A DNA stretch of 64,000 bases, from the NCBI GenBank assembly GCA_902523455.1, contig CABYZG010000002.1, positions 43,652-107,651 on the forward strand, given 5' to 3'. Below the pieces are notes generated by a model. It did not search any database and was not told where the DNA came from. It saw nothing but the letters and a program-made list of their open reading frames with translations. This stretch comes from an uncultured Pelagibacteraceae bacterium. Its GTDB lineage: Bacteria; Pseudomonadota; Alphaproteobacteria; Pelagibacterales; AG-422-B15. The translations under genes and the position numbers were made by a program. Every line of letters starts with the position of its first letter. The stretch's first letter is position 1. This document shows, piece by piece, positions 14,464-53,196 of this stretch.

Positions 14464-14925
14464 TTGGCTAATCTACCATTCTCAGAAGTACAAATAAAAA
14501 AAACTTCAAAACTTAAGAATTTTGATATTCCTTCTTATCAGACTGATGAGGCCGCTGGAGTTGACTTAAGTGCATCCATTGAAAATTCAATTAAAATTCG
14601 TCCATGGGAAAGAGAAATTATTCCGTGTGGAATTTCAATTGCAATGCCAAAAGGTTTGGAGGCTCAAATTCGGCCAAGATCTGGTTTAGCATTTAAGCAT
14701 GGTATAACAATTTTGAATACTCCTGGAACAATAGACAGTGATTACAGAGGTGAAATAAAAGTTGTATTAATAAATCTAAGCAAAGATGAGTTTACCATTC
14801 ATCCAAAAGATAGAATTGCTCAAATGGTCTTCACAAATGCTATACAAGTAAAGTTGAAAGAAGTTCAAAATCTTGATCAAACAAAAAGGGGAGATGGAGG
14901 ATTTGGATCTACCGGAAAAGATTAA
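14464..14925 (+). CDS. dut: dUTP diphosphatase
   Basis: AAGVDL, RPRSGLA, GTIDSDYRGE, RIAQ, RGDGGFGSTG. Confidence 0.97.
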   Translation: MANLPFSEVQIKKTSKLKNFDIPSYQTDEAAGVDLSASIENSIKIRPWEREIIPCGISIAMPKGLEAQIRPRSGLAFKHGITILNTPGTIDSDYRGEIKVVLINLSKDEFTIHPKDRIAQMVFTNAIQVKLKEVQNLDQTKRGDGGFGSTGKD

Positions 14926-15515
14926 TCAAAATCTTTTATTAGAGCAGCTTTTACCTCATTAGTAAGTACAGAAATATGTGGATAGTGTTCGTGGTCGGTT
15001 CCAATCTCAACGGAGCAATCCATATCTTTAAAATCTTTAATATGATGATCTTCAAACTTAAAGTGTAGAAAATGAACTGATGATGTTTTTCCTGAGTTGT
15101 CTGTACGATCTACGTCATTTTCAGGCACAGCAAAAATTTTATTTCCATTAACCTTTATATATGTCTTATTTTCTACATTACCTAAAGATGACAAAACTTT
15201 TTTTCTAGTTAATGGATTATCTATTTCAAACATGAATGTGGCAACTAATTCTGAACCATTTGGTATCAGGGGATTATACGCCTCTAATTCATCTCTTAAT
15301 TGTTCGTCGCCACCTTTTTCAATATAAAGCATTTCCTGTATCTGAGCCTTCATTGTAAAAAAATTTTCAAAGTAGAAAGTGGAATGTGGTCCTAACTCTA
15401 CTCGTCTATTTTTTTTCATTGCAACAACTTCTTTTCGAATTGACTTACGCTCTTTTGAATAGGTAGTTAAGTCTAATAAATCTGACGAGTCGATTTTTTT
15501 TTGTTCGATTGGCAT
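14922..15515 (-). CDS. DUF3501 family protein (rubrerythrin-associated)
   Basis: KKNRRVELGP...FE...QIQEMLYIEKGGDEQLRDELEAYNPLIPNGSELVATFMFEI...GKTSSVHFLHF; lies downstream of the Fe-S oxidoreductase and rubrerythrin. Confidence 0.88.
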   Translation of the reverse strand: MPIEQKKIDSSDLLDLTTYSKERKSIRKEVVAMKKNRRVELGPHSTFYFENFFTMKAQIQEMLYIEKGGDEQLRDELEAYNPLIPNGSELVATFMFEIDNPLTRKKVLSSLGNVENKTYIKVNGNKIFAVPENDVDRTDNSGKTSSVHFLHFKFEDHHIKDFKDMDCSVEIGTDHEHYPHISVLTNEVKAALIKDFD

Positions 15516-15545
15516 ATCACTTACCTAATAATTAATCATTAAATA

Positions 15546-16886
15546 TCAAGTTAAATTATAGGATTTTGCTATAACTTCTATTGGGTGCATAGAAATATAA
15601 TTTACTTCTTTGTCATCATTTAAAAATTCATTTAAGTGTTTGCAAGCGAGTGGACAATCTGAAACCATATACTTGTTTTTTTTGTTTCGGATTTGACGAG
15701 CAGTCGCCCTGCCATATTTAATTGCCGACTTTCTTGTTTTTTTCATAACCCCAAAAGTTCCACCATGTCCAGCGCACTTTTCAACGACATCTACTTTGGT
15801 CTCGGGAATTTTTTTCAACATTTCTAGCGCTTTATTGCCCATATTTTGTGCCCGAGCATGGCAGGCGTTGTGAACAGTAATTCCATCATCAAAAGATTGT
15901 AAACCATCAACAAGTCCTTCTTTTTTAGCTATATCAACAATATATTCATCAATATCAAAAACATGCTTTGATAGCCGTTTAACATTTTTATTTTCTGGGT
16001 TAATTAACGGCCACTCAAATTTTAACATTAAACCACAACTGGCTGTGAGAGTTACTATGTCATAACCTTGATCGATAAGTTTACATAATTCTTCTGAGAT
16101 ATTTTCTGATTGAATTTTTACTTTTTCATGCTGCGCTTGCTCTAAATGTGGCATTCCGCAACAACCAGGGTACGTTGATATTGTGTCCACACCATTAAAA
16201 TTTAAAACATTATTAGCTGCTACTCCTACTTTTGAATTATTATGGTTAACATAACATGTTGAATAAATTGCGACCTTTCTTCCGTAAGCTGGAGCATTTT
16301 CATTTAGCTTATTAGAAATATTTTTGAAGTTATCATGAAATGACTTTTTTTCGAACTTAGGTAATTCAGCATCTTTATCTATACCTGTCATAAGTTCCAA
16401 CGGACTTCTTGTTAATTTATTTTTTTTATCAGATGACCAATTAGCTATACTGGGCGACAGTCTTGCCAGACTCGCATTTCGATCTACCTTTGCAAGTTCT
16501 TTTGGAATTTTAGATAATTTTTTTTGATTTTCTTGATAAGTTCTGTATCTGAGCATCAGATGAGGAAAATCGATATTAAATTCATGGGGTGGTACGTAAG
16601 GACATTTAGTCATAAAACACATATCGCATAATGTGCATTTATCTGTAACATCCTCGAAATGTTTTTTTGTTAAATCATCAACTGACTCATTTGGGGAGTC
16701 GTCAATAAAATCAAATAATGTTGGGAAACTATCGCAGAGATTAAAGCACCGTCGACAACTATGACAAACTTCAAACTGTCGACGCATCTCAGCATCTAAA
16801 GCTTTTTCATTTAGATATTCATCTGAGTTCCAATCTACAATGTCACGTGTAGGTGCAGCTAAACTGCCTTCTTTTTTTATATCCAT
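15546..16886 (-). CDS. Rubrerythrin-associated Fe-S oxidoreductase (GlpC/HdrD-like, CCG domains)
   Basis: EGSLAAPTR N-terminus, CHSCRRCFNLC and CTLCDMCFMTKC ferredoxin-like motifs, and two cysteine-rich CCG repeats (STC..GCCGMP..ASCG; HNACH..KCAGHGG..SDCPLA). Confidence 0.88.
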   Translation of the reverse strand: MDIKKEGSLAAPTRDIVDWNSDEYLNEKALDAEMRRQFEVCHSCRRCFNLCDSFPTLFDFIDDSPNESVDDLTKKHFEDVTDKCTLCDMCFMTKCPYVPPHEFNIDFPHLMLRYRTYQENQKKLSKIPKELAKVDRNASLARLSPSIANWSSDKKNKLTRSPLELMTGIDKDAELPKFEKKSFHDNFKNISNKLNENAPAYGRKVAIYSTCYVNHNNSKVGVAANNVLNFNGVDTISTYPGCCGMPHLEQAQHEKVKIQSENISEELCKLIDQGYDIVTLTASCGLMLKFEWPLINPENKNVKRLSKHVFDIDEYIVDIAKKEGLVDGLQSFDDGITVHNACHARAQNMGNKALEMLKKIPETKVDVVEKCAGHGGTFGVMKKTRKSAIKYGRATARQIRNKKNKYMVSDCPLACKHLNEFLNDDKEVNYISMHPIEVIAKSYNLT

Positions 16887-16891
16887 GATAG

Positions 16892-16919
16892 AAAAAAGGG
16901 GCTATTTAAGCCCCTTTTT
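16892..16919 (-). terminator. Intrinsic terminator between rubrerythrin and the Fe-S oxidoreductase
   Basis: Perfect 11-bp inverted repeat AAAAAGGGGCT-(5 nt)-AGCCCCTTTTT with a U6 tract on the minus strand, starting 2 nt after the rbr stop. Confidence 0.8.
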
Positions 16920-16921
16920 AA

Positions 16922-17341
16922 TTAATCGATTGAGTCTAATGTTTTTTGGAATTTGCCTGCGTGAGACTTTTCAGCTTTGGCCAATGTTTCGAACCAATCA
17001 GCTATTTCGTCAAAACCCTCTTCTCTTGCAGTCTTTGCCATGCCTGGATACATATCAGTATACTCATGAGTTTCTCCAGCTATAGCAGCTTTTAGATTAT
17101 CCTCTGTTGAACCAATCGGTTCTCCTGTTGCAGGATCACCTACTTCTTCCATAAACTCTAAATGTCCATGAGCGTGTCCTGTTTCACCTTCTGCAGTTGA
17201 TCTAAATACAGCCGCTACATCATTGTGGCCTTCTACATCTGCTTTTTGTGCAAAGTATAAATACCTTCTATTTGCTTGGCTCTCACCTGCAAATGCTGCT
17301 TTTAGGTTATCCAAAGTTTTACTATCTTTTAATTCAGTCAT
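16922..17341 (-). CDS. rbr: Short 'aerobic-type' rubrerythrin (no C-terminal rubredoxin domain)
   Basis: [45 protein letters not shown] diiron ligands; 139 aa with no CxxC; strong SD AAGGAG. Confidence 0.95.
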
Positions 17342-17367
17342 TTGTCTCTCCTTAATAAGTTAATACA

Positions 17368-17395
17368 AAGATATAATTGATTTAAAAAAAGTCAA
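17368..17395 (-). promoter_or_regulatory. Putative sigma70 promoter of rbr (TTGACT-N16-TATCTT)
   Basis: Minus strand TTGACT at 17395-17390 and TATCTT at 17373-17368, upstream of the SD at 17353-17348. Confidence 0.55.
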
Positions 17396-17398
17396 TAC

Positions 17399-17415
17399 AT
17401 TAGAATCGTTCTAAA
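17399..17415. promoter_or_regulatory. Iron control element (ICE, Irr box)
   Basis: ATTAGAA-TCG-TTCTAAA, 13/14 match to the ICE consensus TTTAGAA-N3-TTCTAAA; 3 bp from the rbr -35 and next to irr. Confidence 0.8.
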
Positions 17416-17417
17416 CT

Positions 17418-17439
17418 GATATTGAGAATTATTATCAAT
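17418..17439. promoter_or_regulatory. Classical Fur-type operator (7-1-7 / 19-bp box)
   Basis: GATATTGAGAATTATTATC (17418-17436) matches GATAATGATAATCATTATC at 16/19. ATTGAGAAT-T-ATTATCAAT (17421-17439) is a 9-1-9 palindrome with one mismatch. Confidence 0.6.
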
Positions 17440-17831
17440 TAATTATCTAAGTGAACTAGAACTTCTATCTTATTAATTTTTTTATTTTTTGGAGGCTTTG
17501 GGAGGCCACTTACTTTCATATCTACATTAATATCAATTAATTTTTGATCCTTTTTAGAATAAAAGTGGTGATGATGCTCAGTGTTAGTATCAAAATAAAT
17601 ACGTTCAGAATTAATCATTAATTTTTTTAAAAGACCTTTTTCGTAAAAATCGTGAAGGGTATTATAAATTGTTGCAAGAGATATTTCCGCTTTCATTTTC
17701 AAAAGTTTATTTGATAGAGTTTCAGCTGTTACATGCTTGTTTACACCGTCAAATAAATAATTAGCTATAATCACTCTTTGCTTAGTTGGTCTTAGCGAGT
17801 TTTGTCTCAAAAAATGCTTGATATCTTTCAT
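17439..17831 (-). CDS. irr: Iron response regulator Irr (Fur family)
   Basis: LRPTKQR, ISLATIYNTLHDF, YFDTNTEHHHHFY; divergent from fabA as in rhizobial irr-fabA synteny. Confidence 0.85.
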   Translation of the reverse strand: MKDIKHFLRQNSLRPTKQRVIIANYLFDGVNKHVTAETLSNKLLKMKAEISLATIYNTLHDFYEKGLLKKLMINSERIYFDTNTEHHHHFYSKKDQKLIDINVDMKVSGLPKPPKNKKINKIEVLVHLDN

Positions 17832-17851: not shown

Positions 17852-17881
17852 TTAATGTATTTTACAATAATAATACATTAA
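17852..17881. repeat. Perfect 10-bp inverted repeat with 10-nt spacer in the irr/fabA divergent spacer
   Basis: TTAATGTATT-TTACAATAAT-AATACATTAA. Confidence 0.7.
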
Positions 17882-37323: not shown

Positions 37324-37743
37324 CTAATTATTTTTTTTTATTTTGATTCCATAAAGCTCTAACCTATGATCAACAAGATTGTATCCAAGCGACTTTGCAA
37401 CAGAACGTTGAATCTCTTCAATTTCTTCATTTGTGAATTCGTGAATTTCTCCTGTTTCAATATCAATCAAATGATCGTGATGATGGTCTTCAATAGCTTC
37501 ATATCTTGATCTACCATCTTTAAATTCATGTTTTTCAATAGCACCATATTCTTCAAAAAGTTTTACAGTCCTGTAGACCGTTGCAATACTAATATTTTTA
37601 TCCTGCTCGTTGGCATTTAGAAATATTTCATTTACATCAGGGTGGCCATTGGCACTCATCTCTGTAATAACATCGGCAATAATATTTCTTTGCTCTGTCA
37701 TTCTTAACCCTTTATCTCTGCACATTTTTTTTACGTCAATCAT
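37324..37743 (-). CDS. fur: Fur/Mur-family metal uptake regulator
   Basis: GLRMTEQR, HPDV, ISIATVYRTVKLFEE, HHHDHLID, HRLELYG; usual alphaproteobacterial fur/mur locus. Metal specificity cannot be decided from sequence. Confidence 0.88.
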   Translation of the reverse strand: MIDVKKMCRDKGLRMTEQRNIIADVITEMSANGHPDVNEIFLNANEQDKNISIATVYRTVKLFEEYGAIEKHEFKDGRSRYEAIEDHHHDHLIDIETGEIHEFTNEEIEEIQRSVAKSLGYNLVDHRLELYGIKIKKNN

Positions 37744-37752
37744 TTAAACCAC

Positions 37753-38379
37753 TCAATAATAATTATTTATATATAATGGTTTTGGGTCAATTTTATCAAT
37801 CATATTATTATCAATTATTTCTGGTAATTCTTTCAAATTATAATCTATTAAATGAAAATTCTCTTTTATTTTAAGAAAACTTCTATTTTTTAATGATTTT
37901 CCAAGTAAATTAATATTGCAAATATATATTGTTGAACTGTTGTATCTGAACTTTTCATTATCAAAATTAACTAATGTAGGTGAGTTAATGCTCTTATTGC
38001 CTTTGAATGATTGAACAAAAAATTCGTTATTTCTAAAGTGTAAAATTATACATTTTGTTTTTCTAATTTTACTCAGTCCCATTTTAAAATTGATTAATTC
38101 AAATTTAGATAATCCAAATACATTTAAATTCATGGTCAACTTAAGAGCTTTAGCAAAAGTTAATGCAGTTCTAATACCAGTAAAACTTCCCGGTCCTGTA
38201 ATAATATAAATTGATTTTATTTTTTTTATATTTGTATGTGATTTTTTTAAAAATTTATCAATCTCAATAATTAATATTTCGGAAATATTTTTTTTTATTT
38301 TTAATTCTTTATTAACTGATTTACCATTATATATTAAAGCTAATTTAAATGACTGAGTAAAATCTAAAATAAGAAACAT
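37753..38379 (-). CDS. tsaB: tRNA threonylcarbamoyladenosine biosynthesis protein TsaB
   Basis: ITGPGSFTGIRTALTFAKAL, C-terminal PKPLY; otherwise divergent. Confidence 0.85.
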   Translation of the reverse strand: MFLILDFTQSFKLALIYNGKSVNKELKIKKNISEILIIEIDKFLKKSHTNIKKIKSIYIITGPGSFTGIRTALTFAKALKLTMNLNVFGLSKFELINFKMGLSKIRKTKCIILHFRNNEFFVQSFKGNKSINSPTLVNFDNEKFRYNSSTIYICNINLLGKSLKNRSFLKIKENFHLIDYNLKELPEIIDNNMIDKIDPKPLYINNYY

Positions 38380-53135: not shown

Positions 53136-53196
53136 TATCAATAGGATAGTATAATAATAATTAACAATCTCATTTTACTCTTTTTTTAAGTAAGGG

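Follow-up and report, generated by a model that had tools for sequence, protein, structure and literature searches.

An Irr box and a conserved Fur-type palindrome in the irr–rbr spacer of SAR11 bacteria

The 64-kb stretch of DNA from an uncultured Pelagibacteraceae bacterium (SAR11; contig CABYZG010000002.1) analysed here, which we call the window, carries two separate dyads in the 97-bp spacer between irr and the rubrerythrin gene rbr: an iron control element (ICE, or Irr box) that abuts the -35 element of the putative rbr promoter and, upstream of it, a Fur-type 7-1-7 palindrome that we denote box 1. Box 1 is well supported as a conserved cis-element by the comparison of orthologous spacers, and the mechanism that we propose for it is that the spacer might serve as a compact composite control region of rbr–RFO–DUF3501, in which Irr would repress at the -35 element and Fur would bind upstream, the two together forming a push-pull switch; to this proposal as a whole we give slightly better than even chances. 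The products of rbr–RFO–DUF3501 are iron-requiring peroxide-defence proteins.

Control of rbr by Irr through an ICE has been predicted in 'Candidatus Pelagibacter ubique', where rbr constitutes the minimal Irr regulon, with the same regulator type, motif and target gene as in the window (Rodionov et al. 2006, PMC1698941, main text). In its main text, that study describes the ICE only, gives Fur a single target, fbp, and shows no second box at rbr, whereas the spacer analysed here contains two boxes (PMC1698941). In the open-access literature, outside which many papers and supplementary tables lie, we found no description of a Fur-type box paired with an ICE at rbr, either in SAR11 or elsewhere. 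The preliminary description of this DNA, made from the sequence alone, knew of no account of such an arrangement; this stands, within that literature, for the second box and does not stand for the Irr/ICE control of rbr, which was predicted in 2006 (PMC1698941). The finding is an extension of a known kind of regulation: the ICE half is known, and the action of two Fur-family proteins on one promoter has precedents.

SAR11 bacteria live under chronic iron scarcity with very few regulators, and earlier work assigned to them one Fur target, one Irr target and no classical Fur box. If a Fur-type operator lies beside the Irr operator at rbr, two sensors converge on one gene, and a fragment of about 100 bp becomes a concrete object for probing the trade-off between iron economy and peroxide defence.

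Two dyads in the irr–rbr spacer

The spacer (17342-17438) lies between genes transcribed from the minus strand and has the length given in the preliminary description. On the sense strand it can be written as TAA (irr stop, 17441-17439)-T-TGATAATAATTCTCA-ATATCAG-TTTAGAACGATTCTAAT-GTA-TTGACT-16 nt-TATCTT-…-AAGGAGAG-…-ATG (rbr). The ICE at 17399-17415 (TTTAGAA-CGA-TTCTAAT on the sense strand, TTTAGAACGATTCTAAT) matches the consensus TTTAGAA-N3-TTCTAAA at 13 of 14 positions and is the sole match with at most one mismatch on either strand of the 64 kb, where 0.21 would be expected. Only 3 bp separate its end from the -35 hexamer TTGACT (17390-17395, minus strand), which a consensus scan joins over 16 nt to a putative -10 hexamer TATCTT (17368-17373, minus strand); the Shine-Dalgarno sequence of rbr, AAGGAGAG, can be read at 17346-17353 (minus strand). 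The ICE, its score and its distance from the -35 element were all correctly given in the preliminary description. Matches of the TTGACT-16-TATCTT type occur at chance level in the AT-rich DNA of the window; in other lineages the -10 hexamer is TATATA, TATACT or TATTTA, at the same 16-nt spacing despite the diverged spacer sequence. A different promoter, with the ICE half TCTAAT serving as its -10 element, was rejected: it has no matching -35 element, and the hexamer is TCTAAA in other lineages.

Box 1 (17423-17437; TGATAAT-A-ATTCTCA on the sense strand) matches the Fur 7-1-7 consensus TGATAATnATTATCA at 13 of 14 positions and is again the sole match with at most one mismatch on both strands of the window (0.12 expected). 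This score, and the 23 bp that separate the box centres (17430 for box 1 and 17407 for the ICE), agree with the preliminary description, and its concern that equally good Fur-like matches might be common is answered in the negative for the 64 kb. The 15-bp and 17-bp dyads are separated by a 7-nt linker, ATATCAG (17416-17422), and box 1 can be extended to a dyad spanning 17421-17439. A score of 16/19 to the classical 19-bp Fur box had been claimed for this longer segment; the score is real (0.11 expected in the window), but it belongs to the register 17418-17436, whereas the 19-mer at 17421-17439 reaches only 9-10/19 and its base 17439 is part of the irr stop codon. Compared with the PerR box TTATAATnATTATAA, which has T at position 2 and A at position 14, box 1 scores only 11/14; in every lineage it has G at position 2 and C at position 14, the positions that distinguish Fur-type from PerR-type boxes. 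Window-wide palindrome and degenerate-motif scans yielded no second convincing box-1-like site, a weak match at 53152 lying in a short gap between two unannotated genes. At the scale of the genome (~1.3 Mb) either single box could arise by chance; the presence of both in one 97-bp spacer and, above all, their conservation cannot be explained in this way.

The repeat finder returned no exact-seed inverted repeats in the spacer because both dyads are imperfect, and a terminator scan found no terminator between irr and rbr. The spacer RNA folds no better than shuffled sequence (z = -0.28) and matches no Rfam family, and an RNA-based explanation was rejected on these two results.

Conservation in SAR11 and occurrence in other lineages

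Orthologous spacers were collected from the genome collection, from contigs encoding diverged Irr proteins and by a metagenome pattern scan. The module was found in five SAR11 lineages, the window group, represented by 12 distinct sequences with Irr 98-100% identical to that of the window, and four others in which this identity is 54-77%. Box 1 is TGATAATAATTCTCA in the window group and TGATAATAGTTATCA in Group 2 (L017-L029 and L169; Irr 73-77% identical), where it lies within a perfect 8-3-8 dyad, ATTGATAA-TAG-TTATCAAT; the form TGATAATAGTTATCA recurs in L024 (Irr 76%) and L070 (Irr 57%), and in the most diverged lineage (Irr 54-55%) the box is TGCTAATAATTAGCA in L040 and TGCTAATAACTAGCA in L041. 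In pairwise comparisons between the five lineages, 12-15 of the 15 positions of box 1 are identical, the linker is always 7 nt long with 4-7 of 7 bases identical, the ICE half-sites agree at 13-14 of 14 positions around a variable central N3, and the 3 nt plus TTGAC agree at 6-8 of 8, whereas the 50 nt past TTGAC are only 52-65% identical even when optimally aligned. The TTGAC itself varies in none of the lineages, nor does its distance from the ICE, and the ICE of the other SAR11 lineages matches the consensus at 14 of 14 positions. Within the window group, all substitutions fall downstream of TTGAC, in the N3 of the ICE or in the 3-nt gap. The alignment of rbr upstream regions that the preliminary description had proposed as a check thus comes out in its favour and, by phylogenetic footprinting, the two boxes appear as two separate conserved palindromes.

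The box of L040 differs from the common form by a symmetric pair of changes, A>C on the left and T>G on the right (TGCTAAT-A-ATTAGCA versus TGATAAT-A-RTTATCA), which leaves a perfect 7-1-7 dyad; such a double change looks like the mark left by selection for the binding of a dimeric protein to DNA. In L040/L041, the two-box module is followed not by rbr but by an open reading frame (ORF) of 61 aa and, since the module is kept where rbr has been replaced, the operator-promoter cassette seems to be maintained as a unit. This ORF (L040 3003-3188; L042 2423-2608; MIKxALIKKLEG…AEHIDYVVTAEKKLE…), which directly follows the two-box promoter in L040/L041, is also found after rbr in L042-L047, a further low-GC lineage; no Pfam hit is recorded for it, and the window contains no homologue. 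In the latter lineage, rbr lacks an ICE and does not adjoin irr, and a sequence resembling the L040 form of box 1, TGCTAATAGTTTGCA, lies ~20 nt before the ATG, immediately ahead of the ribosome-binding site; the six loci do not differ at this place, so that this similarity carries no information on conservation. A SAR11 clade with Irr 62-65% identical to that of the window (L032-L039, L051-L052) lacks the rbr operon and both boxes between irr and dut. The whole rbr-RFO-DUF3501 operon and both operators (14922-17438) are, as a unit, present between irr and dut in some SAR11 clades and absent in others.

For lineages outside SAR11, metagenomes were scanned with the exact pattern ICE-(3-4 nt)-TTGAC, chosen so as not to bias the sample for box 1. 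The scan returned 120 loci with GC contents of 0.26-0.68, most of them with the gene order irr→rbr, and an ICE abutting the -35 element therefore appears to be a feature of alphaproteobacterial rbr promoters that is both very old and widespread; in one high-GC lineage (L053/L054), the ICE is located between the -35 hexamer and the -10 hexamer instead. Among 113 non-redundant ICE+TTGAC loci, 25 (22%) have a TG…CA 7-1-7 palindrome no more than 15 nt upstream of the ICE, nearly always at 2-5 nt, whereas a score as high is reached by only 1.4% of 15,816 control anchors from these contigs, which amounts to a 16-fold enrichment at the ICE. Examples are TGAGAATGATTCTCA, TGCGAACCGTTCGCA, TGCGAGTCATTCTCA and TGCGAATCGTTTGCA, which we take to be Fur-alpha/Mur-type half-sites. 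The linker is 2-5 nt in these high-GC relatives compared to 7 nt in SAR11, the centre spacing is 18-21 bp (mostly 19) compared to 23 bp, and the equivalent of box 1 lies tens of bases past the irr stop codon, in non-coding DNA. Where the Irr proteins of loci with a box of this type have named hosts, these are Reyranella, Rhodospirillales and Rhodospirillaceae, and in the 19 of these loci for which the irr neighbour was translated the protein always has an Irr-type helix, SLAT[VI]YN (ALATVYN in L075), as opposed to SIATVYR in the Fur of the window. Rhodospirillales were assigned Fur-alpha and the minimal Irr regulon by Rodionov et al. (2006, PMC1698941, main text). The two-box module thus appears to be common to SAR11 and Rhodospirillales-type lineages and not to be specific to SAR11; it is absent from other irr-rbr lineages, such as L048/L049 (43% GC). 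SAR11 has no genetic system, and the presence of the module in Reyranella and other Rhodospirillales makes the question approachable in cultivable and possibly tractable relatives.

In several AT-rich lineages (GC 0.26-0.36, Irr 40-48% identical), the irr-[ICE-TTGAC] cassette precedes peroxidase genes instead of rbr, namely those for a Prx5-type peroxiredoxin (L057, L060, L090, L096, L133 and L168) or the catalase-peroxidase KatG (L078, L084, L134, L150 and L155). In these streamlined AT-rich genomes, Irr accordingly seems to be dedicated to the regulation of genes for peroxide defence. Several of the prx and katG promoters, as well as the rbr promoter of L093, contain a second ICE-like box (e.g., TTTAGAATAATTATAAA) between the -35 hexamer and the -10 hexamer.

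Candidate regulators and direction of control

The gene adjoining rbr, irr (17439-17831, minus strand), is divergent from fabA and encodes a Fur-family protein of 130 aa (Pfam FUR, 68 bits). Its best NCBIfam matches, IrrA (146 bits, cut-off 150) and Irr (142 bits, cut-off 170), are both under the curated cut-offs; the recognition helix is SLATIYN, the rhizobial form being SLATVYN (PMC12748984), the protein has a His-rich EHHHHF motif (HHHH), and the divergent fabA neighbour is kept across the group. Judging from these scores, the helix, the His motif and the fabA synteny, the regulator appears to be Irr-type, as the preliminary description had it. The other Fur-family gene that it named is likewise real: fur (37324-37743, minus strand; Pfam FUR, 129 bits) encodes a protein whose best NCBIfam matches are Fur models, below cut-off, has the helix SIATVYR and sits in a conserved tsaB-fur-plsC-miaB arrangement. 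No Fur-family genes other than these two were found in the window, and for strain HTCC1062 Smith et al. (2010, PMC2864753) name the same pair, Fur and Irr, as the iron regulators. A cognate Fur is thus encoded for the Fur-type box 1, the module occurs in lineages with Fur-alpha, and Fe2+-loaded Fur, the only Fur-family protein besides Irr found in the window, is the most likely binder of the box. With two conserved dyads, an Irr-type neighbour and a Fur-type box 1, control by two different Fur-family sensors, one of the two options raised in the preliminary description, appears to be the best reading.

In Rhizobiales, Irr binds the ICE at low iron and haem and represses genes for iron-using proteins, and Fur binds DNA when loaded with Fe2+. 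Transferred to the spacer, one sigma-70 promoter (TTGACT-16-TATCTT) would be combined with two distinct dyad operators, each for a dimer of a different Fur-family protein. The ICE would be the Irr operator, from which Irr in its low-iron, low-haem state would block RNA polymerase at the -35 element and the UP-element region and thereby repress rbr, and Fe2+-loaded Fur would bind box 1 as a Fur-alpha-type 7-1-7 box. The two proteins would be competent for DNA binding at opposite iron states and their expected footprints abut, so that occupancy would alternate; with only 2 bp between the 19-bp Fur register (17418-17436) and the ICE, the footprints should collide, and a hand-over or anti-repression would be possible. 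Box 1 lies ~27 bp upstream of the -35 element, at about -62 to -76 from the predicted start site (centre about -69), and does not overlap the core promoter, as a site of classical repression would. Fur bound there would be unable to occlude the core promoter, and its effect, the direction of which we infer, would most likely be positive, either by activation, as at Caulobacter sites upstream of the -35 element, or by keeping Irr off the ICE. The outcome would be a push-pull switch that allows expression of an iron-costly peroxidase system only when iron is sufficient. More tentatively, and with less confidence than we place in the switch itself, the module may be regarded as an ancient modular 'two-paralogue toggle' of Alphaproteobacteria, in which Fur and Irr would compete for abutting operators, with Fur as anti-repressor or activator. 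If this is true, the streamlined SAR11 wires its only two iron sensors onto one promoter that decides on iron spending for peroxide defence, and a second target is added for SAR11 Fur, one with a near-consensus Fur box, against the earlier reports of none.

A precedent is the irr promoter of Bradyrhizobium japonicum, which, in work by Hohle and O'Brian dating from 2010, is said to be repressed by Fur and anti-repressed by Irr. There, too, one promoter is reportedly targeted by both proteins, with mutually exclusive occupancy depending on iron status; the target is said to be irr itself, with Fur repressing through an atypical Fur site and Irr relieving this repression. In the window, unlike in B. 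japonicum, the target is rbr, the ICE abuts the -35 element and the Fur-type box is upstream, so that the roles would be reversed if competition occurs; adjacent operators for Fur and Irr on one promoter are found here at the sequence level. Fur of Caulobacter crescentus directly activates sdh, nuo and acnA from sites upstream of TTGAC-type -35 elements (PMC2724300), and the likeness extends to the Fur-alpha box, the ~16-nt spacing and the genes for iron-using proteins; by contrast, Caulobacter has neither Irr nor an ICE, and activation was shown there by reporter and site-mutant data, whereas the arrangement at rbr is known from sequence alone (PMC2724300). In Brucella, DNase I footprinting located Mur and Fur4 at the virB, bab2_0131 and fur4 promoters, again a case of two Fur-family proteins whose operators adjoin or overlap on a single promoter, but these two repress redundantly in response to the same metals, whereas Irr and Fur respond to opposite iron states (PMC12748984). 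Finally, ccpA of Rhodobacter sphaeroides resembles rbr in being a peroxidase/peroxide-defence gene with an upstream Irr box, which is located ~40 nt upstream of the transcription start site and mediates weak repression by Irr; unlike at rbr in the window, the Irr boxes of ccpA and mbfA are single and have no Fur-type partner (PMC3413700).

Several observations weigh against control by Irr and Fur as proposed here. An established Fur target with which box 1 could be compared, the sfu/fbp operon, is not among the annotated genes of the window, and Smith et al. (2010) give no Fur site sequence (PMC2864753). No classical Fur box was found in HTCC1062 (Steindler et al. 2011, PMC3090418) and fbp is the sole Fur target listed for Pelagibacter in the main text of Rodionov et al. 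(2006, PMC1698941); box 1 may therefore be missing from one or more SAR11 clades. About three quarters of the ICE+TTGAC loci have no box 1, which is therefore an accessory element. The TG-N11-CA of box 1 also fits Rrf2-type (IscR/RirA) boxes. A 13-mer corresponding to the left part of box 1, AATTGATAATAAT, recurs at 37804-37816, inside tsaB and 61 nt upstream of the fur start codon; Fur autoregulation through this copy was considered and rejected as a codon artefact, as it encodes I-I-D-N-N and is absent from three other SAR11 fur loci (L176-L184), and it lends no support to a Fur motif. Lastly, rbr mRNA of HTCC1062 rises 1.57-fold under iron limitation (PMC2864753), the opposite of what is expected if rbr is expressed only in iron-replete cells; the effect is small and comes from a strain in which no classical Fur box was found (PMC3090418).

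The 1.57-fold rise fits better with the main rival explanation, to which we nevertheless give only a minor share of belief, namely that Fur is a co-repressor: Irr at low iron and Fe-Fur at high iron would both repress, and rbr would be switched on only at intermediate iron or when peroxide inactivates both regulators. This is the expression window suggested in the preliminary description, which presupposes that Fur represses from box 1. Relief of Fur repression would account for the rise (PMC2864753), Fur is classically a repressor, and, since its register comes within 2 bp of the ICE, a larger Fur footprint, extended or oligomerised, could stretch to the -35 element. As no terminator separates irr from rbr, transcription reading through from irr could also be blocked by a protein at box 1, and the peroxidase targets (prx, katG) of the module in other AT-rich lineages suggest a peroxide-linked logic. 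However, the whole of box 1 is located upstream of both the ICE and the -35 element, a position associated with activation in Caulobacter (PMC2724300), and repression at both iron extremes would keep the extremely conserved rbr off most of the time.

Less probable still is that box 1 is a second, weaker Irr site, with two Irr dimers about two helical turns apart repressing cooperatively, the other option of the preliminary description. Both boxes can be read as 7-3-7 dyads with the same type of axis that share 5 of 7 half-site positions (TTGATAA versus TTTAGAA), box 1 adjoins irr itself, and tandem Irr sites exist in related promoters; yet, if Irr bound, box 1 would be expected to drift towards the ICE, and instead the G at half-site position 3 and the lack of G at position 5 are kept in all five SAR11 lineages and in the Rhodospirillales versions. 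True tandem Irr sites use a second ICE-like sequence between the -35 hexamer and the -10 hexamer, whereas box 1 keeps its TG…CA in every lineage. The spacing of the centres, 23 bp versus 18-21 bp elsewhere, indicates that helical phasing is not conserved, and Irr of R. sphaeroides did not bind a Mur-box (sitA) fragment (PMC3413700). Cooperating Irr dimers are disfavoured on these grounds.

Binding of box 1 by a regulator outside the Fur family, such as the Rrf2-type IscR, is very unlikely. According to the text of Rodionov et al. (2006, PMC1698941), which gives only TG-N11-CA and AATGATAATnATTATCATT, the boxes of Fur-alpha, RirA, Iron-Rhodo and IscR share TG-N11-CA, and Pelagibacter has IscR; the SAR11 versions of box 1 fit TGA-N9-TCA, and an Fe-S protein is among the products of the rbr operon. 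In L040 and the Rhodospirillales, on the other hand, the box has the form TGC…GCA and not TGA…TCA, and the half-sites (GATAAT, GAGAAT, GCGAAT) are Fur/Mur-like over their whole length, box 1 matching the Fur 7-1-7 consensus at 13 of 14 positions. The idea that box 1 is a functionless chance match in AT-rich DNA or a by-product of the irr stop-codon region, to which one might be led by the few 13/14 matches expected per genome (0.12 per 64 kb), by the ease with which Asp-Asn codons yield GATAAT, as at 37804-37816, and by the start of the box right after the TAA stop, is effectively refuted by its retention across lineages in which the flanking spacer has diverged, by the dyad-preserving change in L040 and by the 16-fold enrichment over controls of its high-GC equivalents, which lie in non-coding DNA tens of bases past the irr stop.

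Gene neighbourhood

Several Pelagibacteraceae single-cell genomes encode proteins 100% identical to the Irr protein of the window (GC ~31%), and the gene order around irr is ubiE-ubiB-dfp-dut on the plus strand, DUF3501, RFO, rbr and irr on the minus strand, and fabA-fabB-fabI on the plus strand. The gene rbr (16922-17341, minus strand) encodes an aerobic-type rubrerythrin of 139 aa without a rubredoxin domain (Pfam Rubrerythrin, 106 bits). It is followed on the same strand by the gene for a CCG-domain Fe-S oxidoreductase ('RFO', 15546-16886; Pfam CCG, with GlpC-like NCBIfam matches below cut-off) and by that for a DUF3501 protein (14922-15515; Pfam DUF3501, 205 bits), the third gene of the trio known as the 'aerobic-type rubrerythrin' cluster (Cárdenas et al. 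2016, PMC5114695).

Between rbr and the RFO gene there is a GC-rich hairpin followed by a U-run (16893-16919, minus strand; stem GGGGCU…AGCCCC; RNA fold -16.3 kcal/mol, z = -3.7), which the simple terminator scan missed and with which all sub-threshold Rfam matches of the region coincide. It is likely to be an intrinsic terminator or attenuator and probably makes rbr more abundant than the downstream genes. Rbr is 99% identical between SAR11 lineages whose Irr proteins are only ~74% identical, and 88-93% identical to proteins named after other alphaproteobacterial groups (Sphingomonadales, Novosphingobium and Hyphomonadaceae); its use as a probe for further SAR11 clades was dropped, as ~90% identity across orders gives taxonomically mixed matches. 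The fabA–irr intergenic region contains an inverted repeat, AATGTATT-N10-AATACATT (17854-17879), that is neither ICE-like nor Fur-like. It lies within a block (…TTGTAAAATACATTAA…TTTTAATAAA) strongly conserved across SAR11 lineages, including those without rbr, and may be an irr/fabA promoter or operator.

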